DNA of 63,993 nt, filler included, from Neolecta irregularis DAH-3 (Eukaryota): the NCBI GenBank assembly GCA_001929475.1. It is 7 parts of 7 records of this genome, joined end to end, with 100 filler letters (N's around TTAATTAATTAA, not from the genome) between each part and the next. Parts side by side here need not be neighbours in the genome. Positions count along the whole stretch, not along the records: positions 28,270 to 40,904 come from LXFE01000339.1; 6 more parts are not named here. The stretch is one strand, 5' to 3'. The translations under genes were made by a program, and so were the position numbers. Shown one piece after another: positions 4,312 to 62,953 of this stretch; within the stretch, counting starts at the first letter, position 1; each line of letters opens with the position of its first letter. Below the pieces are notes generated by a model, which was not told the origin of the DNA, searched no databases, and saw only the letters and a list, made by a program, of their open reading frames with translations.

Positions 4312-4650
4312 CCCCCCTAAACTTGACACCACCAAAGAAATTGTCATGACACATATATTTGTCTACCAAACTTCTATTCAAGGTTTAGCTCCCATTCAAA
4401 CATGCAGCTATCAATACTAGCTCTTTCTAACGCCTTTGCTGTCTTTTTAGCTTCTAATTCTGGTGCTCTAGCTACGATTTTTGCCCTTTCTTGAGTTGCT
4501 TTATCAATCACCTGTTGAATACTTTCAATAGTGGCAAATCAGCTATTTGGGTCAATTGGAACCCTTTTCCACACCTTCTTGTCCTGGAACTCCTGGATAA
4601 TTGATCCTTGCTGTTTAATAACTGATTCTTGCTGAGCTTGTTGAGCATTA
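4312..4650 (-). mobile_element. 3' end of a degenerate pogo/Fot1-type DNA transposon
   Basis: Minus strand reads ...DKKVWKRVPIDPNS*FATIESIQQVIDK..., resembling Fot1-type transposase C-termini, followed by a terminus-like GTGGTGTCAAGTTTAGGGGG sequence. Confidence 0.55.
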
Positions 4651-4654
4651 AGCT

Positions 4655-5014
4655 GTGCAATTGCCTTCCCAGTTTAGGATGGGCGAGACGGGCTGGCGTG
4701 GTGAGTGAGGTGGGTGAGGCAGGGGAGAAGGAACACGGGGAGGGAACGACGTGTCAGGCACGTGAGACGGGCGGGCCAGGCGGGTAGGCACGAGGCGGGA
4801 GAGATAAGCAGGCGAGATGGGAGAGGGAGGTGAGACGGGCGGGCGAGGCAGGAGAGGCAGGCGAGACGGGTAACGGGAGTGCGAGGTGTGTGAGACGAGG
4901 GAAACCACAGGCTTTTCATGGGCCAGCTAAGCCCATGGCCTGTCCACAACACTTGAGGGCAGCAATATGGGCTGTATTGAACAGGGCTAAGCCCACAGCT
5001 GGTCCCCAACACTG
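4655..5014. mobile_element. Non-autonomous purine-rich element with hAT-like right end (copy 2)
   Basis: G/A-rich tract 4680-4900 (GAGACGGG, GGCGAG repeats, GGGAGTGCGAGGTG shared with ~538-551); ends CCCCAACACTG. Confidence 0.45.
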
Positions 5015-5423
5015 ACTTGATGAAAGTTAGGAGTAGAGAGCAAATTACATACAAATCTTTTAGAATATATCAATGCTGAGTTTAGTTTGGGAAGAATTGT
5101 CACTCAATAATCAGCTACTACAAAGTCTAGACTGACTCCAAACTCTGCTCGCTATATATCCTGAAGCAAATGTAGCTCATAACAATGTCAAGATTTCATT
5201 CCCTATTCATTTGCCTGAACCAACGCTTATTCGATTGGGCGATCAAGAAATCAAAGTTGACTACCTACTGCCGGATGATTGCGATTTCCAAATCGGAGAT
5301 AAATATCCCGGAACCTCCTGCCTTGGGGATTTAATGTCGTTGGGTAGATACATCAAAAATCAAGGACTGTTTGCTGGGTATTTGGGCGGTGACACGATTC
5401 GATGTTCTGTATATTTGGTGCTT

Positions 5424-9071: not shown

Positions 9072-12000
9072 ATGACGTCTGAAGAGAAGCAACTACCTGG
9101 TCTTCCCCCAACTCCTCGACATATTTTCGCCAGCCGCAAACGAAAACCACCTAAAACGAGCCTCAAAGAAAAGATTGGCATTCCTTACGAACAAATTCCA
9201 CCCCAGTCATCGCCGGTTTCTGTTTCGTATTTGCCCGACCAGCACCGACCCCCGTCTGCTGCTTCTTCTTATCAACAAAACAGCCCGCCAAATTCTGTTC
9301 GCTCTCAGAATATGTACAGGTCAATATCAGACTACGAGCCGAGCATTCGAAGTACTTTGTCGCACGGGCTGCCTTCTGGACCTCGACCTGCTCCATCAAG
9401 TCGAGTATCAAATCATACCCATGCACCTCCCCAATCCTATCGCCAATTCGATCAGATGAGTGTAGCATCGTCAATGTCAAGAGGATCTGGAATGAGCGAC
9501 TTGGACGATACTCCGAGGAGTAGTTATACATCGCAAATTGGTCCAAACGGCGAATTCCGTATGGATAGACCAGATGATGACGCGGCTGTGGAGGCCATGT
9601 TCATTGACTTGATGGTACTCCTCATTTATATTGGTTTAACATGGCAGAATAAGCGTGATTTCAAGAATTTACCAGAAAATGCACGGCGGCAGCTAATGGG
9701 ATATGATCCAGATAAGAAATGGACTTTGATCCATTCAGGCGCTATGGCTGAACATAACTCCAACGTGATGATCTTCTACAAAGACTGTTTTTAAGTTTCA
9801 GAAACGCCGACTTCACCAAGGATTAGGTCACGACAGAGATGTGCCGGAATGGTATGTGAGGAAAATCGTGGAACACAAAATATCTCTCAAGTTGTTGTCA
9901 TCTCTGAGTGTCTCTTTGCGAACCCTGACAATCAGGTAAGAAAATACAATAAAATCTTATTGACTTTAATAGCTGGGTGCAGAAATTTATCGATTTACAT
10001 GGACAAACAGCGTTGACTAAGATTCTCAGCGAGATAAACCAGCGTCCATCAAAGCAAATGTAGGATATTCTTTATTGAGTTTGCTTGATTTCTAGAAAGG
10101 AAGAAGATATCGAACGCGAATATGAGATTATCAAATGCATGAAATCACTACTCAATAATAAAGCATGCCTTTTGAGCTATTGTTTACTAATATCTAGTAT
10201 GGAGCAGATGATGCAGTAGATTCTCAAAGCTGTATATCTGCAATTACTGCCTCTTTGATCTCACCACATCTTCCAACCCGGAAGCTCGTCGCAGAAATTC
10301 TCACCTTCATTTGTCACTGGCAGAAACCTCTTGGTCATACCAGAGTACTTCAAGGCCTAGATAGCCTTCAAACAAAACTCAACGAATTTGGTCGCTTCGA
10401 CGCATGGCTTCGAGTTCTCGAGCACACGATCGATGGAAGAGGAAAAATGGGCAGTCTCGTTGGTGCAAGCGATGAAATTCGCAGAGCGGGTCTTGGAACC
10501 GATAATCTACTGATGGAGTATACACTTGCAAATCTCTTTCTTATCAATTCGATTTGTAACGGAGGGGAAGATCTGAATCTTAAAGTTCATATACGAGGAC
10601 AACTCCGTGGGTGTGGTTTTCATATTCGTTTAATGGGGAAAATGAAGAACTTTGGATACGACTTAATTGATAAACAACTCAACAAATTCGAATTGGAAGA
10701 GGCTACAGACTTTGCTGAATTGTCCGTACAAGAAGGTCGCGAGGAGCTTCAAAATATCGAGGATCCGGTTGAAGTTGTTCAAGCAATCTTGCGAAGAAAT
10801 GAAGGTACTCGAGCAGATGGATATTTTCTATCATCTTTACAGCATTTGTATCTTATTCCTGATGAAGGGGAGATTCGTTCGAGGTTATTTCAACTGTTTG
10901 ATGCGATTACAACGTATCTAGTGATGGATCGACGAGGCGCTGATATGACGGTTACTCAAGCGCTGAATATTCCAATTCATGACATTCTTGATCGACTACG
11001 GAGCGACGAGGAGGCGCAGGTTGCGATTGAAGATGCTAGAGAAGCTCGGTCGCTTGCCGAAAGGCTTGCGGTAGAACGAGATACCATCGCTGCACAGATA
11101 GAAATGGGTGCTGATGGACTTGTTAAACAGCTCCGCCAAGAAATAGAGGACCAGAATGAAGTTATAGAAGCTCAGAAACGAACAAATGAGACTTTACGCA
11201 GAGAACTTGAGGACCTTCAACAAGCACAGTTGAAGCAATCTCAGGAGAGTGAACTTGAAATTAGAGAACTCTACATGATGATTCGCGAAGTTTCACCAGA
11301 GGAATGGGACACATCGGGGGTTTTGGACCGTAATCAACTCATCGAGAAACTCGAACGACAACTAGAGCGAACAAAGACAGGTTATAAGTTGGAAGGGAAA
11401 AATTTCGATGCAGAAGGGCCGAGTGAAAAACTTTTGGTATCTTTAACCGCATTTTTCTCGGTTCTTACTCTTAGCGAATGAGAGAAAAGATGGATAAGGA
11501 GAGACTTACGAGGCTTGATCAAGAGCTTGGTCATCTCCGGAGTTTTTCCGGTGAAACTGAGGGTCATGATTCGCCTTTATCACCCGATGGCATGGATGGG
11601 CCATCATTATCAGCATTCTTTGGTGTATGTGTCGCCCCTGCTGAAAATCGGTTAATTTCCAGTCTTCGCGATCCCGGTCAACTCATGTTACTCGAAAGGC
11701 CTCTCAGTCGTCTGGATTTAGCTATCCAGGCGGTCACCGGCGTTCTGAAACACAGGACTTGATGCTCGAAGAAGGCGACGCAACAATCGAAAAGACTCAT
11801 GTCGTCCGTCTTCGCAAAGCATCTGCTGGTAAACCGGCATTTGTCAACGAAATTATCCCCAGGACGAATAAGGTGGACGGAAGCGACGATGACTATGAGT
11901 CAAAAGGCAGCGAAAATGGAAAAGAATCAAATGTTACGGCGCCCACTTCACACATCGCCAGCGAGAATGTTGAAACATCTAGAGTTTGGGTCAATGTCAT

Positions 12001-28169: not shown

Positions 28170-28269
28170 NNNNNNNNNNNNNNNNNNNNNNNNNNNNNNN
28201 NNNNNNNNNNNNNTTAATTAATTAANNNNNNNNNNNNNNNNNNNNNNNNNNNNNNNNNNNNNNNNNNNN
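28170..28269. other. Artificial scaffold linker (N..TTAATTAATTAA..N); also at 40905-41004, 43639-43738, 53875-53974, 61684-61783, 62854-62953
   Basis: Identical 100-nt spacer with stops in all six frames, present six times. Confidence 0.98.
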
Positions 28270-30081: not shown

Positions 30082-31449
30082 TTAATTCAAGATAAAAGTG
30101 ATGGATGCAATGAAAAATAAAACACCGGGATGCAATACAGTTCGTGTAGCCAAACTCTTTCCTTGATTAAATCCATTCTGGGCCTCGGTAGAGCCAGAAG
30201 CTGAGCTTGACCCAGAAGCGGAACCAGAACCAGAAGAAGAACCAGAAAAACTAGAAGTGCCGCCTTGGCTGCCCTGTGCACTTGAACCAGCAACTGATCC
30301 TTGACCCGGGACGTTTTGAACTGTTTGAGTTTGAATATTACTATTTGCTGCTGTGCCACCGGCAGTAAGATTTGTGCCTGTCGCAGCCAGACTTGAAATT
30401 ATAGTCTTGTCATCTTTGATAGCGATGGAAGTATTGAGACCTTTATTGTCTAGCCAAACGTAACTTGTTTGGCCTTGGACTGTAGCGCCAGGGGGAGGAC
30501 CGTAGCATTCTATATTGACTGATTCCAAAAACGCGAAATCGTAGCTGTACTTTTGGATATCTTGGGAATTCCAGTCTATTTCGCCGCCTGCCCACTTTAT
30601 TGTGCCTGGAGCATTTGAGGCTAGACCGCCTGGCCAGAGGGAGAATTGTATTCTGGAGGGGGTTTGAGGGTATTGAAAGTTCCCGGTGGTTGCGTTGTAT
30701 GTGTCCACTTTGTTGAGAGTACGAACTGTTTGGCCGTCGATATCCCATTTTAGGACTTCTGGGGACCAGTCGATGGTGTATGTGTGGGTGGTTGCGAAAG
30801 AATCTGAAATGGAATGATTTCCCGAGTTTGTATCTGGAGTGAGATGTGAAACAGAAAGACTGGTACAATTGAGGACAGCCTGCCAGTAAAAGTTTGACTG
30901 GGCCTGTTGTAGGTCGTTTCCGACGAACTCCCAATCAACTTCGTCGTGGACGTCTGACATTGTGCTGGAGGTCAGAAGGGAGAGAGAAAGGCGATACATG
31001 AAGGAGGTGACTACGCCCTGGCCTCGGGAGCTGCGCATTGCCGCGGACACCTTGCCGTACCACATGTAGCGGGTCCAGCTCAAAACGGTGCCGACCGAGT
31101 TCTTTGGCATGGTGAGGAGGGTGCCGTTCTGGTAGGAGAGGGGCGTGCCCTGGGCCACAAAGTCTGCCTTGGTTGGATCGCCGAGAAAGTCGGAGATAGA
31201 GGCGACGCGATCGAGGGAGGCGAGGGCAAAAGACCCGGACTTGCAGACGGGCATTGGCACGCAGGACTGGAGGGAGAACGACGCCAGGGGGTCGCAGCCC
31301 TGGAGACAAAAGGCTCCGACGCCGCACTGGCCGTACTGCGAACAGCATGGCGTGTCAGAGGGACACTGCCCTGCACCGGCGCCGCACGAGGGGGGAGCAG
31401 CAGTGAGCAGGGTCGCAGTAGCCAGCAGGAGCCACAGAGTGGGTGCCAT
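30082..31449 (-). CDS. UTR2: GPI-anchored GH16 chitin transglycosylase with N-terminal chitin-binding domain (Utr2/Crh2-like)
   Basis: Signal peptide, CPSDTPCCSQYGQCGVGAFCLQGCDP, DEVDWEF, YPQTPSRIQFSLW, Ser-rich linker, hydrophobic C-terminus; two 33-nt introns. Confidence 0.9.
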   Translation of the reverse strand: MAPTLWLLLATATLLTAAPPSCGAGAGQCPSDTPCCSQYGQCGVGAFCLQGCDPLASFSLQSCVPMPVCKSGSFALASLDRVASISDFLGDPTKADFVAQGTPLSYQNGTLLTMPKNSVGTVLSWTRYMWYGKVSAAMRSSRGQGVVTSFMYRLSLSLLTSSTMSDVHDEVDWEFVGNDLQQAQSNFYWQAVLNCTSLSVSHLTPDTNSGNHSISDSFATTHTYTIDWSPEVLKWDIDGQTVRTLNKVDTYNATTGNFQYPQTPSRIQFSLWPGGLASNAPGTIKWAGGEIDWNSQDIQKYSYDFAFLESVNIECYGPPPGATVQGQTSYVWLDNKGLNTSIAIKDDKTIISSLAATGTNLTAGGTAANSNIQTQTVQNVPGQGSVAGSSAQGSQGGTSSFSGSSSGSGSASGSSSASGSTEAQNGFNQGKSLATRTVLHPGVLFFIASITFILN

Positions 31450-31454
31450 GGTGG

Positions 31455-31640
31455 GTTTGGGTGGATATAGGGTGGGTATAGGGTCGGTATTGGGTGGATA
31501 TCGCGTGGATAGAGTGGATATCGCGTGGATAGAGTGGATATCGCGTGGATAGGGTGGATATCGCGTGGATAGGGTGGATACCGGGGGATAGGGTGGATAG
31601 GGTGGATACCGGGGGATAGGGTGGGGATAGGTGGTGAATA
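31455..31640. repeat. Minisatellite, 20-bp unit GTGGATATCGCGTGGATAGR (about 4 copies) with degenerate GGATAGGGT flanks
   Basis: Directly visible tandem repeats filling the IPK1-UTR2 intergenic region. Confidence 0.95.
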
Positions 31641-31679
31641 CAAGACCGAGGGGTATATGCACAATGCCGCGGAGTATTC

Positions 31680-32524
31680 TTAGTCCCTTGTTTCACCACG
31701 CCCGCTAGCCCCGTCCCGCTGCAGCCAGCACTCGCTCGCGGCGTACCACCAACCCCCGCGTTCCAGCTGCGCTGCAGTCTCCCGCCACTCCCTCCTGTCC
31801 CGCTTTGCATCCACATCGCCCAGCCGCACGCCGCCCAGCCGCAGATCCACATACACGCTCACATCCCGCACCGTCATCCCCGCCCGCTCCCCTTCCGCAA
31901 ACCGTTCCTGCAGCCCCCGCACCACCTGCACTATCCCGCTGCCTTCCAGTATCTCCGCCAGCCGCTCCTCCTGCCGTTACCTTGGTCTGTGCGCGCCATA
32001 CCCTGCCCGCCGCAATATAGCCCGCGGCCCTCTTTTTGTCCCCCCACACCATCTCCAGAGGACAGAAACTCTGCTCCTTGCCTCGCATCCCCCGCACCGC
32101 ACACGTCCGGCAGTTCCGCGCATCCCCTGGCGCGCTCTGTGCCTGAACAAGCCATTTAGGCTCCATTAGCTTTCCCTCGAGTCTGCCATACTTTGAATTC
32201 AACCATCTCTTCCCACCTGCACAGATCCTCCACCATCAGAATCTCTTCTTCCTCTACGATCGCTGGTATATCCATATCTGAGATCGCCTCCTTGACTCGT
32301 CTCCACATCTCCCGATTCATCCTAAATAGTCGCATCTTCATACTAAACTCCTTGGGAATAAACGGTCCTATAGCCGACCTGTAATATTCGTAAACATCCC
32401 GCGAATTCATTCCATCCTTTCGAACCCGAATCAACATGTCCTGATTAAGCAATTTATTCTATATACTTACATGTTCGGGCGTGGAAAGAAGAATGTTGGC
32501 GTTGCCTTGTCCGATTACGTTCAT
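31680..32524 (-). CDS. IPK1: Inositol-pentakisphosphate 2-kinase
   Basis: GQGNANI, EFK|PKWLVQ, CRTCA, FCPL, MTVRDVS, GDVDAK; two 31-nt introns. Confidence 0.85.
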
Positions 32525-32574: not shown

Positions 32575-32760
32575 ATTGCATATATCGATATTTATATTTA
32601 TATTTACATTGATCCGATATTATATCGGATTGTATCCATATTTGTATTTATATTTGCATTTACATTGATTCGGAATCGTATCGGATGGGATCGATATTTA
32701 TATTGATTGAGTGCATTCTGTTGATTGGGTATTATATCGATCGTATATTTATCCTCTATA
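32575..32760. repeat. AT-rich low-complexity tract (TATATT / ATCGAT-like motifs)
   Basis: Degenerate short repeats upstream of IPK1. Confidence 0.6.
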
Positions 32761-34257: not shown

Positions 34258-37200
34258 ATGGTCATCTATATGGGCAGTGAGCATACAACCGCAGAAGAAC
34301 ACAGATTGAATGATGATCGCAAGAAAAGAAAGGTATCATTCTCTGCTGTACAACTTGCCAATAATAATTTTAGTATTGGAAAAGTCGCATATATCCCACG
34401 TCATATCTAACAATTCACAGAATATGGACCTTATCTTTCTGAACGACAATGGGTATACCGAAACTTGTTCAAACCTAAGTGTCTAGGCTACTGTACGAGA
34501 AGATTACTCTGCAGACGGGGATGCCTGGTCAAATTTTCCACATGACCATGCACGCTCACGGGCATTTCGCTGGGGAGAAGATGGTATTGGTGGCTATTCA
34601 GGTAAATGCACATGCTGGTGCTTTTGCTGAGTTGAAGACACTCATAGTTTGCTATGTATGTCATTTGCATTTTGGAACGAGGTTTGTCCTGTCAAACCTG
34701 CTTCTCATGTCTAGAGGGATCCCTATCTCAAAGAACGACTCTACGGGCTGACAGGGCATGAAGGTAGTGCTTGCCAATTTGTTCTACTAATCAAAAGGAA
34801 ACCATGGAGAAGATGTCAAGGAGCTATATTACTACCTTGATTCAACACCAACTCACAGTTACATGAAATATCTCTACAAGTATCCTCAAAAAGAGTATCC
34901 TTATGAAAAACTTGTCGAAGAGAATGCCAAAAGATCTCGAAAAGAAACAGAATTTGAAATTACTGACACAAACATGTTTGAGAACAACAAATATTGGGAT
35001 ATTTTCATTGAATACGCAAAAGATGATGACAACCCTCATGAGACACTTATTCGAATTGCAGCGGTGAACCGTGGTTCAGAAACAGCGTCGTTGCATATTA
35101 TTCCTCAAGTACGTATTCTTAGAATACAATATTTAACCATAGATGTGGTTTCGAAATACGTGGTCTTGGGGTATTGAAGCTGCTGACAAGAAACCCCATA
35201 TCAAGCAACAATCATCTACTGTAGCTCATGCCAAACACTGGGACTTGGGTGACCGTTATCTCCAATGCTCGTCCTCTCCTGGTCCGACTGACGATCTCCC
35301 CGATGTCCTACCCACTCTTCTTTACACAGACAACAACACAAATAAGAAACGGCTTTACAACGTCGAGAACGAGAGTCCATATGTAAAGGATGCGTTTCAT
35401 GAACACATCGTCGATGACAAACGAAATGTAACCAACCCTCGAAAAGAGGGCACAAAGGTTGGGGCTTGGTTCTTTTTTGAAGAAGTTCCTCCCGGTGAAT
35501 GCGCTGTAGTCAGAGTCAAATTCTCAGATAGGGTCGAAGAAGGTTCAATCGATGAGGAAATCTTTGATAATACCATGGAAAAACGACGACTTGAATCTGA
35601 TGATTTTTATTGGAGAATCAGTCCAAGTCCGATGTCTGATGATCTCCGAAATATACAACGTCAAGCATTGGCCGGAATGTTGTGGAGTAAGCAACACTAT
35701 CTATTCATTCATGATCAATGGGCCTATGGCGACCCACTTCAACCGCCTCCGCCACCTGAGAGAAAGCACATTAGGAATCAGCACTGGCGGCATTTGCACA
35801 TTGATGATGTTCTTTCTATGCCAGATAAATGGGAGTATCCATTCTTTGCTGCTTGGTACAAAGCCGAATTGCTCTTTGCTGATGACCAGGGATACTGCCT
35901 TTCATTGTATTCCTTTAACTATGGTTGACCCAGACTTTGCCAAAAAGCAACTAGATTTGCTGACAAGAGAGTGGCATAGGCCATCCTTTGCTCGTAGAAA
36001 CTTACACTATAGGTATATGCACCCTTCAGGTCAACTACCCGCATATGAATGGAACTTTAGGCAATGAATTTGTTTTTTATTATATTGTTGATTAATAGTG
36101 ACGTAAACCCTCCAGTGCACGCCTGGGCTACCTTCAGAGTGTTTAAGATGGAGAGAAAGCTTTATGGTCGTGAAGATCTGGATTTTCTAGAACGCGGTAC
36201 GCAAATATCTTGAGAAGCATCCAACCAAGTTTCAGTTTTCCAGAAACTTCTTCTCAATTTCACTTGGTGGGTCAATAGAAAGGATGAAGAAGGAAGCAAT
36301 GTGTTTGAAGGAGGCTTTCTCGGCCTTGACAACATTGGTCTTTTCAATCGATCAGAACCTCTTCCCACAGGTGGTCGCCTGATGCAAGCTGATGGAACTG
36401 TGAGAAATCCCTCCCACCAGATTGTGCTTACTTGTAGTCCTGGATGGCTTTCTATTGTCTTTCCATGTTAAATATTTCTCTTGAGCTCGCCAAATACCGA
36501 AGGACCTATGAGGATATTGCTTCGAAATTCTTTGAACATTTCCTTTTTATCTCAGATGCCATGTCATTCAGAAGTGGGGACAACGATGTTTCTCTGTGGA
36601 ACGAGGAAGACGAATTTTACTATGATTGCATTTCGTGGGGAGGACCTTGGCGACAGAGCCTACCCGTCAAATCTCTCGTTGGATTGATACCACTCTACGC
36701 AGTTTTGACTCTTGAACCAGAAATTGTCAATCGCTTTCCTTCTTTCAAGAAACGCTTGAATTGGTTCATCGAGAACAGAAGTAAAGTTGCCAATAGAAAC
36801 ATTGCATCTATGAAGCATCGTGGAAAAGGAGACAGAATGATGCTTGCTTTAGTCAATAAAGATCGGCTAGTTAAAATTCTTCAAAAAATGCTTGATGAAG
36901 ACGAATTTCTTTCCCAGTATGGGATCAGATCGTGAGCTATAATAGAAGGACTTTGCTGATGTGTAGACTTTCAAAGTATCATCAAGAACATCCCTACTCA
37001 ATGAACGTCAATGGACAAGAATTCCAAGTGGTTCGCAGTCTTTGTTTGATTCGTCTAATGTGCTAGGACTATGTTCCAGGCGATTCTAACTCTGGACTTT
37101 TCGGCGGTAATTCCAACTGGCGAGGTCCAATCTGGTTGGCAACAACTTTTCTTTTGATTGAGAGTCTTCAACGGTTTTATCTCTACTATGGAGACACCTT

Positions 37201-37890
37201 AAAAGTTGAATGTCCGACTGGAAGCGGGAATTTCATGCATTTGGGACACGTGGCCGAGGAAATTCAACATGTATGGCATTATTTTATACTCCTGACTTTA
37301 TAGAGAGTTCAACACATATTTGTCCGCGATGAATCTGGAAGACGGGCTGCGAACGGCGGCAACGATTTGTTGGACTTTAACCCATACTTTAAGGATCACG
37401 TTCTCTTTCACGAATTCTTCCACGCCGATGATGGGAGTGGTCTCGGTGCCTCTCACCAGCTGGGATGGACGGGCCTCGTGTATTGTTTTTGCTCGACGAG
37501 ATACTAACATCAGTGCAAAATTGATCCATGATACTGGGTTGACGTGTCGTCTTCCTAAAACTCCTAAAACTCCAACTTCGGCAGCTAATCATTATTTTGA
37601 CGAAGTATTCAGTCATGTTCCTCGACCTCGACACCGGCGAACTGGGACTGGAAGATCACTTGGTAGTGCCATTGTTTGGTATATTTTTTAAATATCCAGG
37701 TAATCGGTCAGACTTTGATGATGCCATGTCTCAGTATACAGTGGTCAATGATGACAAAGACAAGGAAGCCAATGACGAGAGGATTGAGCAAATCACTCAG
37801 TACTTGCAACAAATGGAGTCTGGTGGAGATGCTATGAGTTACGAGCACGCTGATGAATTTGAAGTCGAAGCAGGGTTGGATGAGCTGTAG
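34258..37890 (+). CDS. GH63-like / MGH1-like six-hairpin glycosidase (YMR196W-like), many introns
   Basis: [105 protein letters not shown]. Confidence 0.9.
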
Positions 37891-38047
37891 ATGTAGATGA
37901 ACTTGGCGCACAACAGGATACATTCCAGCATATAAATCGGTCACGATACATGGCATATAAATTTGGCACGAACATTTATAAATCGGTCTATATGAGTTGG
38001 GTGAGCGTATTAAGGACGAGGACGGAAGAAAAGAGGTAAATGTATTT

Positions 38048-38549
38048 TTAAACAACGGTGCCAGCATTTGAAGCTATTCTGGGCCAGAGGTCTGCACATT
38101 CTTTTGCGACGGGGCCAGTGATGGCGGAGCCTTGAGGTAAGAAGAGAAGGAAGGGAAAAGAGACCTTTCATTTCGCCCTTTGGATTGACGATGACGCCGG
38201 CGTTGTCTTCAAAGTAGAGGTAGACGCCGTCTGGGCGACGCCAGGGTTTTCGCTGGCGGACAATGATGGCGGGATGGACCTTTTTCCGCAGTTCGGGCTT
38301 TCCCTTTTTCACGGTGGCGAGGACCATGTCGCCTGGGGGGTGAGCGTGGGAGGGAGGGGGCTGCGGGAGAAGAATACCTGGGGCACCGGCGGGCAGTCTG
38401 TTGAGGCGGGCGCCGACGCCGTAGACGGCGATGATGTAGAGGTTTTTTGCGCCGCTGTTGTCTGCGCAGTTCATGACTGCGCCGACGGGGAGGCCGAGGG
38501 ACATTCTGAACTTTGTGCCAGAGGCATTCTGTAGGCCTTTCTTTGGCAT
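38048..38549 (-). CDS. RPL23: 60S ribosomal protein uL14
   Basis: [65 protein letters not shown]; two introns. Confidence 0.97.
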
Positions 38550-38594
38550 TGTGGGAGGGAGGAGAGAAAAGGAGAGTCGGGGTCAGTGTGAGGG

Positions 38595-38610
38595 CGTGAC
38601 TGCGTGACTG
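38595..38610 (-). promoter_or_regulatory. Tandem HomolD-type boxes (CAGTCACG x2) upstream of RPL23
   Basis: Two adjacent CAGTCACG about 45-60 nt upstream of the ATG, followed by a pyrimidine tract; matches the fission-yeast ribosomal-protein core promoter CAGTCAC(A/G). Confidence 0.7.
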
Positions 38611-38630
38611 CGTGGCGGGCCGTGCTGCAC

Positions 38631-38910
38631 CAGTACTGTTCACTGCTACACTCAGTACTGTTCACTGCTACACTCAGTACTGTTCACTGCTACACTCAGT
38701 ACTGCTCATGCTACACTGCTACATTGATCACGCTGCTACACCGACTGCACTGCTACATTGATCACACTGCTACACGGCTCACTGAGGGGACTAACTACAC
38801 TGACTGACACTGACTGCGCCTACCACACCACACCACACCGACTACACACCACCGACTGCACACCACCGACTGCACACTACACTCACTACACACCACACTC
38901 GCTACACTGC
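38631..38910. repeat. Minisatellite, 22-bp unit CAGTACTGTTCACTGCTACACT x3 decaying into CAC/CTACAC repeats
   Basis: Directly visible; fills the divergent RPL23/RPD3 promoter. Confidence 0.95.
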
Positions 38911-38930
38911 CCTACCGCTGGCCACACTGC

Positions 38931-40353
38931 ATGACGGCGACTCTCACTGTCGATGCCTCGTCGACGCCGCTGGCCCAGAGCATTCCTGCGAGCACGGCGC
39001 TGCGGCGGACGATTGCGTACTTCTACGACAGCGACGTGGGCAACTATGCGTACGGAGCGGGGCACCCGATGAAGCCGCACCGCATCCGGCTGGCGCACTC
39101 GCTGGTGATGAACTACGGGCTGTACCGGCGGATGGAGGTGTACCGCGCGAAGCCGGCGACGCGGGCGGAGATGTGCCAGTTCCACACGGACGACTATGTG
39201 GACTTTCTTGCGCGCATCACGCCGGACACGATCGCGGCGTACCCGAAGGAGCAGGCGCGGTACAACGTGGGCGACGACTGCCCGGTGTTCGACGGGCTGT
39301 TTGAGTTCTGCGGGATCTCGGGCGGCGGCAGCATGGAGGGGGCGGCGCGGCTGAACCGCGGCAAGTGCGACGTCGCGGTCAACTGGGCGGGCGGGCTGCA
39401 CCACGCGAAGAAGAGCGAGGCGAGCGGCTTCTGCTACGTCAACGGTGCGGCTCCTGCGCGGCGGCGGTGCTGATCCAGACATTGTGCTCGGCATCATCGA
39501 GCTGCTGCGCTACCACGCGCGCGTGCTGTACATCGACATCGACGTCCACCACGGCGACGGCGTCGAGGAGGCCTTCTACGCGACGGACCGCGTCATGACG
39601 TGCTCGTTCCACAAGTACGGCGAGTATTTCCCCGGCACCGGCGAGCTGCGCGACGTCGGCGTCGGCAAGGGCAAGTACTACAGCGTCAACTTCCCCCTGC
39701 GCGACGGCATCGACGACGCCAGCTACGCCAGCGTCTTTGCGCCCGTCGTCGCCGGCATCATCGACTGGTACCGCCCCGGCGCCATCGTCCTGCAGTGCGG
39801 CGCCGACAGCCTCGCCGGCGACAGGCTCGGCGTCTTCAACCTGAGCATGAAGGGTTTGTCGCTGCCGGCATCGCGCTAACCGCCAGGCCACGCAAAGTGC
39901 GTCGAGTTTGTCAAGAAGCTCAACGTCCCCACCCTCGTCCTCGGCGGCGGCGGCTACACCATGCGCAACGTCTCCCGCACTTGGGCCTACGAGACAGGCC
40001 TCCTCCTCAACGAGGAGCTCGGCCCAGATCTCCCGTACAACGAATACTACGAATACTTCGGCCCCGACTACAAGCTAGACGTGTGTCCAAACAACATGGA
40101 AAATCTAAATACGCGCGAATACCTCGAAAAAATCAAAACATCCGTCCTGCAGAATCTGGAACGCACCAAATTCGCCCCGAGCGTGCAGATGCATGACACG
40201 CCCCACGACCGCGACGTCGACGATGACGACGACGACGACGACGATTTAGATGACAGACCCGACGACGACGACGATCACGTGCTCGGAAGGGAAAAAGTGG
40301 GTATCATGCATGGCATGGACATGAATGTGAATTTGAACGAGAATGAAGAGTAG
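38931..40353 (+). CDS. RPD3: Class I histone deacetylase (Rpd3/Clr6)
   Basis: [60 protein letters not shown]; acidic tail; introns of 34 and 33 nt. Confidence 0.96.
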
Positions 40354-40407
40354 GGTTTTGTGCTTATTCACATGTATTAATACATGACTTGAATTCTTAT
40401 CTATTAT

Positions 40408-40839
40408 TCATCTATCGAAAATATCTTGAAGTATCTCTGGCCGGGCCTTTGGGATTCGAGAAGCTTCAATACGCCTACCAATACAGGAAGATATTTGTGG
40501 ATTTCGTTGAATAAACTTGGAAACCCATCTACGTCCAAGGGGAATAGTGTCTCCATACATGACTAAAATTCTTGTCGCCATTTCTCTTGTCCGGGTGTGT
40601 GAGGGAGGATATCCTTGCACAGCTTGTTCAAATATCCATTCAACAAGAAACTCCTCTTGCCGTGGTGTCAATCGCTGGTGATTTTGGTGGCTAATTCGAC
40701 GATTTGTCTGGCCGTGGATTCGCCCAATTAGTGTAGACCGCGGGATTCCATATGCGGCCGCGGCTGCTTTTTGAGAGGTAAATTTTCCTGAATTGAGATC
40801 TTCAATAGCTGATTGAATTGTTCTTTCACGGCTATCCAT
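40408..40839 (-). mobile_element. pogo/Fot1 transposase N-terminal fragment (Psq-HTH + CENP-B-type HTH), truncated
   Basis: SQKAAAAAYGIPRSTLIGR, LTPRQEEFLVEWI, LGRRWVSKFIQRNP; homologous to 61784-61980. Confidence 0.88.
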
Positions 40840-41004
40840 TTCGAAGAGATGGTGGAGAAATACCTTTATTTGTATCTTTCATTATATATTTATGTAGTGG
40901 CAGGNNNNNNNNNNNNNNNNNNNNNNNNNNNNNNNNNNNNNNNNNNNNTTAATTAATTAANNNNNNNNNNNNNNNNNNNNNNNNNNNNNNNNNNNNNNNN
41001 NNNN

Positions 41005-43638
41005 GCTATGTCTGGGCTTATATTATCCTTAGGTATGTCTAAGGGAACCCAGTAGTAGCTTAGCTATGCTTGGCTACTCTGGTATTAGTACTTAAGATAG
41101 TACTAGCAAGCGATCACTAAGAGGTGGTCAGTTGCACTGTTTATCAGTAGCAACTAACTTATTCCTCTAAGGTATTTATACTTGTATAATATGATTATGT
41201 AATAGTGGCTTGATTATATCAAGCCACATCTTGCTAACCTCACTATTCATCTATAGGCCAGGGCCATATCATTACAATGGGATGGTGGTGAATGCTCAAA
41301 TGAAGCCATGGACAAGGACAGGTTCAGGATAATCTACACATAGTTTCAATTTTTGAAAGGTAGTGATGAAACCAGTGATTGATGAGGATACTTTCAGATT
41401 GTCAAAGGCTAATCTTTGCTTGAATAGGTAACCCCAAGGAATAAATTCTGATCAAAAAAGGTCCATAATTTTATTGGGGGAACTGGCAATATCCAGAGCT
41501 TCTTTATTTGCTCACCACCATTCTTTTGCATAACCAGTCAAGCTTTTGAAGATCATTTGCTTGAATTCTGTATCCTCTAAGTTATAACCCTGAGATACTT
41601 CAATGATCACAAACCACCAGTCATTTACATCCTCTTTCCGAGAGAATTTGGGGTACTGAGGGATATGGGAAGCCCGCTGCACTGCTAGGGCTGTTGTTTT
41701 TGCAGCTTCAGTGGCTGCTTTTGCCACTGTGACTGTGAATCGATTTTCCAAAGCTGCTGTATTTGCAGCTTGGGTTTCCTGAGTATGAGTGATTGCCTTG
41801 TTGATTACTGAGGCAACTGAGGTGCCGATGGCTGCAGAGACCTGCTCCATGATATTTTTGAACATTTCAGGGTCCATTGTTTTAAGGGTCTTCTGTGAGT
41901 ACTTGACTTATCCAATGGTAAGATACTGTGTATCTTGGCAGGGTTGACTCGTCAGTACTCTTGTGTGAAGACCTTTATTCTACCTACCTAACTCATCAGT
42001 ACTCTGTAAGGATGGTTTTCTTTCCTTATGCTATGCTACTACCAACAAGGGAGCTTAGCTTAGTACTGGGTGAAGAGTCTATGGATGATGAGTCAAACCT
42101 TATACATCTAGGTAGAGCTCAATGAGGCTGATCTTTTCACTGTATATTTGTGTCACCTACGGTTAATGGTTGCTGCACTATCCCAGGTTGAAGACATCCT
42201 GGGTAGCTTATTAATGCATAAACAGGGTCCCCACGGCCAAATCGATGAGGTAACCTAGCTTAATTTTTATACGACCAGGTAGAGCTACTCAAGACCGATC
42301 ATTCCGCTGTATTATTGTCCTTATAAATTGTTGTTGTATCCTGAGTTATCGTCCTGGGGCTGTTTTTCATTGAACTTAGAATTTTTCTCAAGGTAGGGCA
42401 TTTCTGAGAAATACATGGAATCCATCCAAGTACTTCTAAAGACACTCCCTACTGAGTATTTTCCCAGTGATTATTAGTGTAGTTCCAGCATTTTCTGATA
42501 ACTCCTTCATTAATCCCACCTCTTTCTCTATATATATTATACATAATTATATACCCTACCTCCTCTAATATACCACATGCCTCCCCTCCTATGCGAGCAG
42601 CACTCAATTAACCATAAAAGATAATACTTCTGTCACAAGCCCTGGAGATCTCTTAACATATTTCTTTAGCTGATCCCCTGCAAATGTCTTTGGCATCAGT
42701 CATCCAGTATCATCAAAAAGCCTATATGATCTGTTCTTATTGATGGTTGCAATAATATAGGGCCCCTTCCACCGGAAACTGAGTTTGTTAGACCACTGTT
42801 TGTCCAACCATAATTCCTATAGCAGAACCAAGTCCCCCTCTTCCAAGGCTTCTTTTGTCATTTTTCTTTTGTTTGCCTTGTCAAACCAATCCTTATTTTT
42901 TTGACAGCTTATTTTTAAGCTTTCTGCTGCATTTTCTATATACTCCCCATTATTATTTACAAACTTCAACTGCTCTTCTAGAGCATCTTCCACCTCCTCT
43001 AACTCTTTCTCTTCAAATTCTACATCTGCCGTGTTTTGGCAATGCCTGCCTATCATAAGGAAGTATAGTGAGTATGCAGTTGCCTTCCTGGGCATCAACC
43101 TATCTACCCACAATACAGTGGCCAGATTTTCCACCCAACTTTGAGTCATCTTGGCAAGTCCATCCACTATAGACTTATGTCCGAATTATGTGAAGGATTC
43201 TTGACTTCCTAGTATCTACCTCTGTTAGTGGAATATTTTGGGAGTATTCTTTATGTATATGAAGTTAAGAAAAAGTTGTACCTAGGGAAGCTGCTAACCC
43301 TGGATTGCTTAAAGATATTAACTATCATCACTAAAGTTGTTAATTGGGAGTTATAATGCTGGGACAGCATTATACAGAGAATTCATGTATAAACTTGGAA
43401 TGTCTCCTCCCTGATTAGGATGATAAGTTCAGCAAGGAAACTAAAAGGTCAATATCTCTGGCTGGAAGAAAGATAACCACTATCTTCAACCTACAAAAAG
43501 GATCATCTTGATGCCCTCTATTGCCTGAACAATCATCAATGCAGGTTATGGATGATTGGAGATAACCTTCTCCTATTGGGGTGGTTTTGATGGAAAACCT
43601 TTGCTTCAAAGCTCAATAACTCATTAACCACCACGATC
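41005..43638 (-). mobile_element. Degenerate Ty3/gypsy retrotransposon pieces: integrase C-terminus, putative LTR (42151-42637), structured leader, gag fragment
   Basis: GDLVLL...KLSFRWKGPY integrase motif (42700-43170); TGT...ACA bounded segment immediately after it; gag-like PKFS...LTGYAKEWW (41512-41877); many stops. Confidence 0.8.
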
Positions 43639-44373
43639 NNNNNNNNNNNNNNNNNNNNNNNNNNNNNNNNNNNNNNNNNNNNTTAATTAATTAANNNNNN
43701 NNNNNNNNNNNNNNNNNNNNNNNNNNNNNNNNNNNNNNTGTATATAATTAGCACCAGGTGGACAGTGGCCGTCATCTTGTTAGTGACGACTCACTGCCAC
43801 ATAGATCACCTCTCCTCGGTGACAGACCCGTTCTCAAAATATCCATCTTCCCTCAAAAAGTCTCAGACAAGGAACAAATTTACATTCCCCAATGTGTATC
43901 TGTAAGGATATACACTTTGGGTATATCTTACCAATATGGCAAGGTGGCTCCAGTGTCTGCAGGTGTGCCACTTTCCTGTGAGTCAATTGAAGCTGGTAAA
44001 CATTCTGTATTTGGAAATGATGGTATTGGTAAAGATGAAAGCTACTGCTCTAGTGGGGTATAAAAAGTGCTCCATTGAGATATATAGGTTGGCAGAACTT
44101 TCATGTTCGGCAGACATTTGAAACCTTTTTTTGGACTTGAAGTCAGATTTGAAACAATATACCAAGCTGTACACTTTATCCCTCGTTCCTTTAATCCAAC
44201 CAGCCCAACAACCCAACAGCCCATCAGAATACTCTCTGAGCGGTTGGCCACACTGTGTGGTTCATATTTGTTCGGTGGGCTGTTGGCCATACTGTTTCCA
44301 GTAGATCAGATTTGACCTTCAGAAGATGCCTGCCCAACAAATTGCACTATAACAAATTCCAACAGGTATCAAT

Positions 44374-45791: not shown

Positions 45792-48519
<2,728 letters not shown>

Positions 48520-53874: not shown

Positions 53875-54411
53875 NNNNNNNNNNNNNNNNNNNNNNNNNN
53901 NNNNNNNNNNNNNNNNNNTTAATTAATTAANNNNNNNNNNNNNNNNNNNNNNNNNNNNNNNNNNNNNNNNNNNNTTTACGTTTTTTTTTGGCGAGGTGTC
54001 GCGTAAAGGGGGGTGTCGCTTAAGTCGGTGTTGAGCTTATACCTGCCAATCCGATAACATCTACCACTTGTCTGGTAAGAACATTAGTTCTTATAACCTC
54101 AGCTTACAATTATCATATTTGTTTATAAATGTGCGTTAGTTAGGACATCTGAAAATTTTAACCCGAATATTTGTGTCAAAAAGGCATTATTGGCGTGGAA
54201 ATTCAAAAACTTGCGTAGTCTAGACAGTGTATTGGGCAAAAAAACTAAGGAAATTTGGCCATTGATCAAAGCATGGCATCAACCACTTTTAGGAAATGAG
54301 ATGATGTAGTGTTTATTTCCACACTATGGCTAAACACTTTAAGAAGCAAATTGTCCTTATATTGCCATAGGCCAGCCCGTTTTCCAGTATCATATTCGCT
54401 AATAGCCAGTC

Positions 54412-61683: not shown

Positions 61684-61783
61684 NNNNNNNNNNNNNNNNN
61701 NNNNNNNNNNNNNNNNNNNNNNNNNNNTTAATTAATTAANNNNNNNNNNNNNNNNNNNNNNNNNNNNNNNNNNNNNNNNNNNN

Positions 61784-62853: not shown

Positions 62854-62953
62854 NNNNNNNNNNNNNNNNNNNNNNNNNNNNNNNNNNNNNNNNNNNNTTA
62901 ATTAATTAANNNNNNNNNNNNNNNNNNNNNNNNNNNNNNNNNNNNNNNNNNNN

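Follow-up and report, generated by a model that had tools for sequence, protein, structure and literature searches.

A GC-rich island with mirror-image G and C arms across RPD3 in Neolecta irregularis, a possible scar of a meiotic break hotspot

Local GC islands are known from the GC-rich regions of gerbils and the sand rat, where they are ascribed to runaway GC-biased gene conversion (Pracana et al. 2020, PMC7403616; PMC6573468). In fungi, 99 of 177 Saccharomyces cerevisiae hotspots lie at G+C peaks, and recombination falls when 60% of a G+C-rich region is deleted (Hsueh et al. 2006, PMC1630710). Unicellular fungi also display a strand asymmetry, the coding strand being C-biased at the promoter and 5' end and G-biased at the 3' end, four-fold sites included; this gene-end skew is linked to transcription and has no established mechanism (McLean & Tirosh 2011, PMC3315797). 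Around human meiotic breaks, single-stranded DNA is found on the forward strand to the left of the break and on the reverse strand to the right. The flanks show strand-asymmetric C>N and A>N mutation, with off-centre C>G peaks ascribed to deamination and translesion synthesis (Hinch et al. 2023, PMC7615360). In yeast, fixation of uracil-derived abasic sites yields either C>T or C>G (PMC11230362). Finally, at yeast replication origins the + strand is G,T-rich on the left and C,A-rich on the right (Marsolier-Kergoat 2012, PMC3459929).

We analysed a 63,993-nt stretch of Neolecta irregularis DAH-3 DNA (the window), the features of which are listed in Table 1. Only two strong GC islands are present in the window, both within one 12.6-kb contig (28270-40904). 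Island 2 has 61.5% GC, whereas the median over all 300-nt windows of the stretch is 42%. The enrichment includes the island introns, with 67-76% GC vs 30-42% in five introns of the flanks, while the intergenic portions of the islands have only 54-58% GC. Of the four island genes, three extend beyond the limits of their island, the borders cutting the CRH-type gene, the IPK1-like gene and the tail of RPD3. The four-fold G/C fraction of CRH is 75/95 inside island 1 vs 56/154 outside (p=4e-11); for the IPK1-like gene, the corresponding fractions are 50/58 and 13/28 (p=2e-4). This partial overlap shows that the GC pressure is regional, and neither codon- nor gene-specific. We conclude that a regional, non-selective pressure drove silent positions, be they four-fold, two-fold or intronic, to 90-100% G/C across gene borders. 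The GC-rich segments make up 10.3% of the window but contain 5 of its 15 tandem-repeat arrays, an enrichment with a binomial p=0.014. Among the minor GC peaks, those at 380-899 and 4530-5073 contain G-rich minisatellites and no convincing coding frame, and were set aside as additional islands; those at 59-60.8 kb correspond to a divergent ORF pair with both coding strands C-rich.

Table 1. Coordinates of the two GC islands and of the genes, repeats and silent-site transition associated with them.
Feature	Position	Strand	Description
GC island 1	30833..32323		60% GC; same contig and + strand polarity as island 2
GH16 (CRH-type) gene	30085..31449	-	only 5' third within island 1
G-rich minisatellite	31456..31631	+	9/11/20-nt units; between CRH start and IPK1-like stop
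IPK1-like gene pieces	31683..32458	-	spread over three frames; PF06090 24.3 bits (cut-off 22.7)
GC island 2	38046..40273		61.5% GC; silent sites 63-100% G/C
RPL23 CDS	38051..38549	-	exons 38378-38549, 38165-38332, 38051-38130; introns 45 and 34 nt; PF00238 9.3e-27
Short tandem-repeat cluster	38594..38908	+	periods 8-30 nt; divergent RPL23/RPD3 promoter and RPD3 5'UTR
RPD3 CDS	38931-40353	+	exons 38931-39444, 39479-39853, 39887-40353; 451 aa
RPD3 exon 1	38931..39444	+	G3-rich, four-fold G67:C19; Hist_deacetyl profile positions 1-126
RPD3 intron 1	39445..39478	+	34 nt, 76% GC
RPD3 exon 2	39479..39853	+	C3-rich, four-fold C47:G15; Hist_deacetyl profile positions 129-253
RPD3 intron 2	39854..39886	+	33 nt, 67% GC
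RPD3 exon 3	39887..40353	+	C3-rich, four-fold C42:G11; GC3 down to 0.67 beyond 40100; acidic tail
Zone of silent-site G-to-C handover	39350..39550		change points, sigmoid midpoint 39493

Both RPD3 introns are removed in an RNA-like contig of run X2, which begins at 38675 and bridges 38675-40350. This run is not on record as RNA, and its transcript-like behaviour is judged from the GT..AG joints. RPD3 and the run X2 sequence differ by two bases only, and the depth of the run across 38705-40321 is that of a single full-length spliced RPD3 contig. Profile searches show that the Hist_deacetyl domain (PF00850) runs on across the exons, with E-values of 2.9e-25 for exon 1 and 4.3e-41 for exon 2, and the predicted protein is assigned on this basis to the RPD3-type class I histone deacetylases.

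The initial annotation had described the third positions of RPD3 as nearly all G or C with a switch from G3 to C3 near 39.5 kb, and RPL23 as G-rich on the + strand; counting bears out all of this. The GC3 of RPD3 is 0.93 within 38931-40100, and the four-fold sites of RPL23 are C55:G4 on its coding strand, i.e. G55:C4 on the + strand. For the 201 four-fold G/C sites of RPD3, the best split falls between 39528 and 39546, with a G:C of 73:23 on the left and 20:85 on the right; none of 5000 permutations equalled its log-likelihood ratio of 34.8. Including RPL23 places the change point at 39353/39359. The sigmoid fit has its midpoint at 39493 and a scale of ~94 nt, with P(G) going from 0.85 to 0.07. 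Because a logit-linear gradient is nearly as good (nll 81.5 vs 84.7), the switch is a steep gradient and not a knife edge.

The handover zone coincides with the centre of a plateau of 100% G/C at four-fold sites (39250-39850), with a G maximum near 39.1 kb and a C maximum near 39.9 kb, ~400 nt on either side. Silent sites of the + strand are ~85% G to the left of ~39.49 kb and ~93% C to the right, each strand being G-rich then C-rich in the 5' to 3' direction. All eight four-fold codon families shift alike (for instance Ala from 20G:2C to 3G:9C, Arg from 8:4 to 0:11 and Gly from 6:8 to 0:24), and the shift persists irrespective of the following base. It is a silent-site signal: when all sites are scanned over the whole window with 600-nt arms, the switch is absent from the top skew jumps, which are at 31680, 42420, 38620, 8840 and 770. 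Since the switch falls within one mRNA and one Pfam domain, the asymmetry is not tied to the transcribed strand.

The difference between the arms is specifically one of G versus C. Two-fold sites are saturated in both arms, with C:T of 47:5 and 56:5 and G:A of 15:0 and 19:2. Single-strand C>T deamination was rejected as the main cause of the skew, as the G-rich arm keeps no extra T at C/T-ending two-fold sites (5/52 vs 5/61). Four-fold A/T sites of island 2 have a T:A of 18:9 on the left and an A:T of 8:1 on the right (p=0.006); such an asymmetry was sought in island 1 and not found (p=0.75). The coding strands of 18 background ORFs have a C:G of ~1.5:1 in every third (212:142, 190:135, 197:126), and G3 far exceeding C3 is abnormal in this window. 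The flanks obey this coding-strand C>G rule rather than position, and the + strand gene upstream of island 2, on its left, has more C than G on that strand (C24:G10 and C16:7).

The RPD3 protein has 26 unique changes at conserved columns, vs 2-16 in nine other rows, the 24 comparison proteins having been hand-picked from 120 listed. These changes include K>R twice, I>V four times, T>A, S>A, N>T, F>L and M>L. Five are towards G/A/R/P residues (GC-rich codons) and one away from them; ten are from F/Y/M/I/N/K residues (AT-rich codons) and four towards them. They are of the A/T-to-G/C type, and the terminal branch of RPD3 is long (0.74 vs a median of 0.25). A highly conserved chromatin enzyme can thus be pulled into faster, composition-driven protein change. 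A near relative was sought among 80 metagenome RPD3 loci and not found, the best identity being 81%. From these 80, we picked 33 fungal loci for their flanks, and neither the island nor the skew flip recurs in any of them (largest gene-minus-flank GC difference, 0.10). As 0 of 33 loci share it, the GC island is not a property of the RPD3 gene itself.

Island 1 has a G:C of 104:23 to the left and 14:71 to the right of ~31.41 kb, and none of 2000 permutations was as strong. The 3' part of the IPK1-like gene lies in this island and has, on its coding strand, many more G3 than C3 (41:6 and 14:3). The initial annotation had underlined that both islands share their polarity despite different gene arrangements. 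On the + strand they do, but the agreement is less striking than it looked, because the gene-end rule predicts a change from G to C both at the tandem junction of island 1 and at the divergent RPL23/RPD3 promoter, where the + strand switches from G to C at 38.62 kb. In mammalian CpG islands with R-loop skew, the non-template strand is G-rich downstream of the start, which amounts to C then G across a divergent promoter. The RPL23/RPD3 promoter has the opposite order, and this candidate was discarded. A search for a motif or repeat common to both island centres gave none. The heptamer at 39595-39601, which we take to be the S. pombe M26 hotspot motif, lies in a short palindrome; we attribute it to chance, with 7 copies in the window vs 6.55 expected and none near the centre of island 1.

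The mirror-image G and C arms may be the scar of a long-lived meiotic double-strand-break hotspot centred at the RPD3 flip, a reading that we prefer to all others yet place slightly short of probable. A change from G:C to C:G leaves the GC content unchanged and is thus neutral for GC-biased gene conversion; behind the G/C split there must therefore be mutation or repair that acts unequally on the two strands and reverses its polarity at a fixed point. The route that we infer goes from recombination and breaks through resection to bypass. GC-biased gene conversion would give the A/T-to-G/C drive, over ~1 kb on each side of the centre. Resection would expose a single-stranded + strand to the left of the break and a single-stranded - strand to the right. 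Damaged cytosines on these single-stranded tails would be bypassed as C>G, which would lower C and raise G on the retained strand.

Several observations fit such a hotspot. The pressure is regional and neutral-like, as seen from the intron GC, the saturated two-fold sites and the shifts inside CRH and the IPK1-like gene. The midpoint of the flip is at the centre of the G/C plateau, within one mRNA. The abnormal G3, the protein changes, the enrichment in repeat arrays and the 33 other RPD3 loci point in the same direction. Three features expected of biased gene conversion were found, namely a G/C excess that includes introns, borders set by position and A/T-to-G/C protein changes. The restriction of the asymmetry to G versus C, a polarity in agreement with the published anatomy of breaks and the location of fungal hotspots at G+C peaks also favour a hotspot.

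Other observations fit the hotspot less well. Yeast-type hotspots are mostly in promoters, and the presumed centre here is in a coding region beside intron 1. The 5'UTR repeats at 38675-38930 are C/A-rich on the + strand (GC skew -0.46) and form the sole stretch interrupting the G-rich left arm; either there are two centres, at 38.62 and 39.49 kb, or the UTR is under other rules. The A/T asymmetry is inconsistent between the islands, and the two-fold sites of CRH, with a G:A of 13:0, run contrary to the hotspot prediction. The strong islands are just two, on one contig, and their intergenic parts do not exceed 54-58% GC. Gene-end skew suffices for the switches of island 1 and at 38.62 kb, and yeast origins share the polarity. 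A wider proposal, which we regard as doubtful, would make G/C arms the fixed footprint of break resection at stable hotspots, with single-strand damage leading to C>G and gene conversion holding G/C; the fungal 5'-C/3'-G skew would then be its weak genome-wide form, produced by promoter-centred breaks.

The islands could instead be places where ordinary fungal gene-end skew is exposed by high GC, with the GC enrichment a separate matter and the RPD3 flip the mark of an overlooked nucleosome-free region near 39.45 kb that serves as an internal or antisense promoter. Of the five island segments, four agree with it, namely CRH at its 5' end, the IPK1-like gene at its 3' end, RPL23 and the 5'UTR of RPD3, as does the divergent ORF pair at the 59-60.8 kb peaks. 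However, the gradient is reversed with a very large effect in the RPD3 CDS, G-rich at 5' and C-rich at 3', and this internal switch is the sole one contrary to the gene-end rule. Moreover, run X2 has no separate internal or antisense contig over 38705-40321, although contigs cannot exclude one. We find this explanation unlikely, and the gene-end rule, which has no established mechanism, may itself reflect the same process as the hotspot proposed here.

A fixed, efficient replication origin at the island centre could yield G and C arms through a change of fork direction at that point and leading/lagging mutation asymmetry. The polarity of origins, G,T to the left and C,A to the right, is the one seen here, with the A/T part in island 2 only. 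Yet the skew is limited to arms of at most 1.4 kb and does not extend across replicon arms, the flanks obey the coding-strand rule, and there is no known replication cause for a GC3 of 93-100%. An origin inside a coding exon would also be unusual. The published yeast skews are averages over several kb (PMC3459929), and overall we consider an origin distinctly improbable.

Selection on synonymous sites or mRNA, e.g. if translation, folding or export were served by G in the 5' half and C in the 3' half, has very little likelihood. High expression is plausible for RPL23 and the cell-wall GH16 enzyme, both of which have C-ending codons; RPD3 and IPK1-like genes are not typically highly expressed. 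Against selection, the GC enrichment is common to introns, eight codon families flip together in any context and no other fungal RPD3 locus among the 33 is alike. The earlier view that translational selection is a poor account of a mid-gene switch is upheld by the single transcript and domain, the GC-rich introns and the borders cutting genes.

The tree places RPD3 within an ascomycete clade of 28 rows (SH-aLRT 100), and each of its halves is nearest to Saitoella (83% and 81%). Among the 120 best listed matches, 116 are fungal-named or unnamed, with 71-84% identity, and the other four are labelled Achlya, Musa, Papilio and Quercus. The island introns, of 33-45 nt, match the intron size of the flanking gene, and the DNA-run depth is similar in island and flank (431 vs 342). 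In run X1, DNA contigs extend over 36500-38660 and 39170-40502, including both island edges and the switch; between 38660 and 39170 this run has short contigs at repeats only, so that the island is nowhere covered in full by one DNA record. Island 2 is native, contiguous and expressed host DNA. Horizontal transfer and misassembly are not supported because of the Ascomycota grouping of both halves, the intron size, the depth and the bridging contigs, in line, for RPD3, with the argument against transfer made in the first reading of the locus. Foreign or chimeric DNA, whether transferred horizontally, introgressed from a GC-rich relative or created by an assembly join, is scarcely credible: it would suit a composition far from the host mean, the long RPD3 branch and a window made of contigs chained by artificial linkers, but both islands are in one contig, island 2 is bridged in parts by X1 and RNA contigs, and a transfer leaves the mirror-image G/C split unexplained.

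A saturated GC island is a natural reporter since gene conversion cannot distinguish G from C: its four-fold G:C ratio reads the strand asymmetry of C:G-to-G:C transversion almost undisturbed. Should the flip mark a hotspot centre, hotspot positions, resection spans and the mutational signature of meiotic repair would become readable from sequence alone in a fungus without genetics, and a mechanism would be offered for the long-known fungal skew, unexplained since 2011. Should the wider proposal be true, one genome sequence would suffice to locate hotspot centres and measure resection spans. Our literature search, with subscription papers outside its scope, covered GC-skew flips at recombination hotspots and GC3 islands in Ascomycota/Taphrinomycotina and gave no account of the present pattern in fungi; at mouse hotspots, Smagulova reportedly described a purine/pyrimidine skew in 2011.

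The present island resembles the gerbil and sand-rat regions by its extreme local silent-site GC in an otherwise ordinary genome and by conserved genes with A/T-to-G/C amino-acid changes. It differs in measuring ~2 kb in a compact fungal genome, vs far larger mammalian regions, and in a strong mirror-image G/C strand asymmetry of which the cited accounts make no mention. With the Cryptococcus MAT flanks and S. cerevisiae hotspots it shares kb-scale G+C peaks, some of them between divergent genes; in that work, hotspot activity was measured and no skew is reported (PMC1630710), and the excess of silent-site GC is far stronger in the present island. Like the skew of McLean & Tirosh, the asymmetry is present at four-fold sites, extends into promoters and UTRs, and has an identical polarity in island 1 and between RPL23 and RPD3; unlike it, the RPD3 CDS has a reverse gradient, with a G:C of ~6:1 then ~1:13, far beyond the averages described in that paper (PMC3315797). 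Across yeast origins, GC and TA skew shift in the same direction as here, but origin skews have a small amplitude and span kb to tens of kb, whereas the present one is island-confined and extreme (PMC3459929). The human meiotic breaks share the forward strand affected on the left and the reverse strand on the right, a prominent C>G and off-centre maxima; they concern de novo or rare variants at PRDM9-set hotspots, whereas the pattern in Neolecta would be the fixed equilibrium composition at a stable hotspot in a fungus (PMC7615360).

GC content averages ~43% across the window and rises above this in two strong islands that both lie within a single genuine contig (28270-40904). Each of the six joins consists of 44 N, a 12-nt linker with stops in all frames and 44 N, identifying the window as a chain of artificially joined contigs. 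Island 2 holds the divergent pair RPL23 (-) and RPD3 (+), and the histone-deacetylase domain of RPD3 is continuous from exon 1 into exon 2.

Coordinates, strands and characteristics of the features in the window
Feature	Position	Strand	Details
GC island 1	30833-32323		60% GC
GC island 2	38046-40273		61.5% GC
Artificial joins	28170-28269, 40905-41004, 43639-43738, 53875-53974, 61684-61783, 62854-62953		contig order across them unproven
Three 10-N gaps	62438, 63506, 63630		
RPL23	38051-38549	-	three exons; PF00238
RPD3	exons 38931-39444, 39479-39853, 39887-40353	+	451 aa
Tc5/pogo-type transposase DNA-binding fragment	40411-40878	-	PF03221, PF05225; directly after RPD3
ORF	41515-41907	-	without Pfam match
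G-rich minisatellites	552-707, 4811-4870		18-58 nt units; inside minor GC peaks 380-899, 4530-5073
AT-rich 56-nt tandem repeat	32588-32739		~2.5 copies; 265 nt past right edge of island 1

The initial annotation had described a synonymous switch from G-ending to C-ending codons near 39.5 kb inside RPD3, and the proposed change-point test on four-fold degenerate sites is significant. Over the 201 four-fold G/C sites of RPD3, the best change point lies at 39528-39546, with G:C counts of 73:23 on the left and 20:85 on the right, a strength matched by none of 5000 permutations. All eight four-fold codon families move in the same direction, independent of the following base. A sigmoid fit places the midpoint at 39493 with a scale of ~94 nt, a smooth gradient being only slightly worse; this midpoint coincides with the middle of the plateau of 100% G/C, and the G (~39.1 kb) and C (~39.9 kb) maxima each lie ~400 nt from it. 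The flip is a silent-site signal, not prominent when all sites are counted.

On the + strand, the four-fold sites of RPL23 and RPD3 together give G:C counts of 116:16 left of ~39.36 kb and 32:96 right of it. Island 1, at the - strand pair of an IPK1-like and a GH16 (CRH-type) gene, goes from 104:23 to 14:71 around 31.4-31.7 kb and has the strongest all-site skew jump of the window, so that the common polarity noted earlier for the two islands holds. At four-fold sites, background ORFs of the window uniformly favour C (~1.5:1 relative to G), a norm of which the C-rich coding strands of RPL23, CRH and RPD3 exons 2-3 are an exaggerated form. The true anomalies are two stretches rich in G, namely RPD3 exon 1 (67:19) and, in the IPK1-like gene, its 3' part (41:6, 14:3). 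Two background ORF segments, 47400-47811 and 10620-11050, also have more G than C, contrary to the norm (22:8 and 16:4), and may be weaker cases of the same positional asymmetry.

The GC pressure is regional, not codon-level. Intron GC reaches 67-76% in the islands versus 30-42% in five flank introns, and two-fold sites are G/C-saturated in either arm of the flip. RPD3 GC3 is 0.93 as far as 40100 and falls back in the tail; in the GH16 gene the enrichment is limited to the 5' third, and in the IPK1-like gene to the 3' part. The pressure extends to the RPD3 protein. Where at least 80% of 24 other fungi share a residue, it carries 26 unique changes, mostly of A/T-to-G/C type, as compared with 2-16 in each of nine other rows, and its branch is long. 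None of the 33 other fungal RPD3 loci examined, from 80 fetched, has a GC island. Of the 15 tandem-repeat arrays, 5 fall in the GC-rich segments, which make up 10.3% of the window, an enrichment with p=0.014. The two minor GC peaks show positive skew without a convincing coding frame; their minisatellites may belong to the promoters or UTRs of genes on the - strand, comparable to the repeats of both islands.

The switch is neither an artefact, nor foreign DNA, nor translational selection. Contigs of a DNA run (X1) match the window without differences over 36500-38660 and 39170-40502, thus bridging both island 2 edges and the switch point, and depth is alike in flank (431) and island (342); chimerism is therefore unsupported. 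Over 38660-39170, X1 provides only short contigs at tandem repeats, and no single DNA record holds the whole island. A single record of X2, a run behaving as transcript contigs, spans 38675-40350 with two base differences and lacks the 34-nt and 33-nt RPD3 introns; another has the two RPL23 introns removed along with five of 33-37 nt from the gene upstream. These spliced contigs confirm that the genes are modelled correctly, are expressed and have introns of host-like size. Among the best 120 matches listed for RPD3 exon 1, which include ascomycete RPD3 proteins at 71-84% identity, four carry non-fungal labels. In a tree with 30 proteins hand-chosen from these 120, RPD3 falls in the ascomycete clade (SH-aLRT 100), at an unresolved base together with Taphrinomycotina, and both protein halves have the same nearest taxon (83% and 81%). 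Together with the intron size, this bears out the earlier argument against horizontal transfer of RPD3. The doubt raised about translational selection was equally justified, given the G/C-rich introns, the island borders cutting genes and the flip within one transcript.

Several other features accompany the locus. The seven RNA-confirmed introns at 36932-38377 (flank gene and RPL23) all measure 33-45 nt, unusually short for a fungus. One X2 contig takes in both the upstream gene (+) and RPL23 (-), indicating that their 3' ends meet or overlap. Of the two X2 differences within RPD3, at 38997 and 39125 (G or C in the window, T in X2), one exchanges Ala and Ser in the N-terminal tail and the other is a synonymous Tyr change; two sites are too few for a fixation-bias test. 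The repeat block of the promoter and 5'UTR (38558-39145) has a summed X1 depth 3-7x that of the flank, up to 2938 versus 431, and its C-rich motifs seem to be present at other places in the genome as well. At 40.47-40.9 kb, a 2-4 fold rise in X1 depth with numerous variant contigs indicates that the transposase-bearing element at the end of the contig is multi-copy. The segment 42001-44000 (CpG observed/expected 0.23 and TpA 0.98; elsewhere 0.7-1.2 and 0.55-0.9) resembles a repeat that C-to-T mutation has eroded, in a RIP-like manner or in connection with methylation.

T retention at pyrimidine-ending two-fold sites is not raised in the G-rich arm (5/52 versus 5/61), so the asymmetry is essentially G versus C. 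A G:C to C:G change leaves GC content unchanged, and biased gene conversion is blind to it; the ratio thus reflects either transversions that differ between the strands or selection acting on RNA, the latter opposed by the introns and the gene-cutting island borders. As polarity reverses inside one transcript, the asymmetry does not depend on which strand is transcribed. Judging from base composition, a putative long-lived recombination hotspot appears the most likely cause of the saturated G/C and mirror-image arms, although our confidence in it stays a little short of even. Gene-conversion drive would saturate silent sites with G/C, and resection-linked mutagenesis would sort G and C into the two arms. 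A short palindrome at 39586-39605, ~100 nt beyond the flip midpoint on its right side, contains the 7-nt fission-yeast M26 hotspot motif, which occurs in the window at chance frequency (7 versus 6.55 expected).

In unicellular fungi, coding strands are described as having a C bias at promoters and 5' ends and a G bias at 3' ends, four-fold sites included, for reasons unknown (McLean & Tirosh 2011, PMC3315797). This rule fully predicts the island 1 flip, at a tandem junction of the IPK1-like 3' end and then the CRH 5' end (both -), and a flip at 38.62 kb, where the divergent promoter is followed by a C-rich RPD3 5'UTR. However, the RPD3 coding sequence is the opposite of its prediction, and it is unlikely that the rule combined with an unseen internal promoter explains the RPD3 flip. 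Some cause outside those considered is rather less probable again. Slightly less probable still is a fixed replication origin at the island centre: the sign agrees with yeast, where leading strands are A- and C-rich (Marsolier-Kergoat 2012, PMC3459929), but the skew is restricted to the island and the flanks track gene orientation. The gene-end rule and the origin may both be mechanistically non-independent of a hotspot.

The recombination hotspot, proposed from n=2 islands, has points against it: its centre is intragenic, A/T asymmetry is inconsistent, and the C-rich 5'UTR repeat block sits in the G-rich arm, which may point to a pair of centres, one at 38.62 and the other at 39.49 kb. Of gene-end skew, replication origins and meiotic breaks, the three known processes of this polarity, only the last brings an established local GC source, GC-biased gene conversion. 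G+C peaks are described as measured hotspots in Cryptococcus and as associated with hotspots in S. cerevisiae (Hsueh et al. 2006, PMC1630710). In yeast, C>G changes that arise through abasic sites are described (PMC11230362), and in the flanks of human breaks C>N and A>N are reported to be strand-asymmetric, with C>G peaking away from the centre, which is put down to damaged cytosines and translesion synthesis. Resection there exposes single-stranded DNA of the forward strand to the left of the break and of the reverse strand to its right (Hinch et al. 2023, PMC7615360), and the polarity at RPD3 agrees with this meiotic break geometry.
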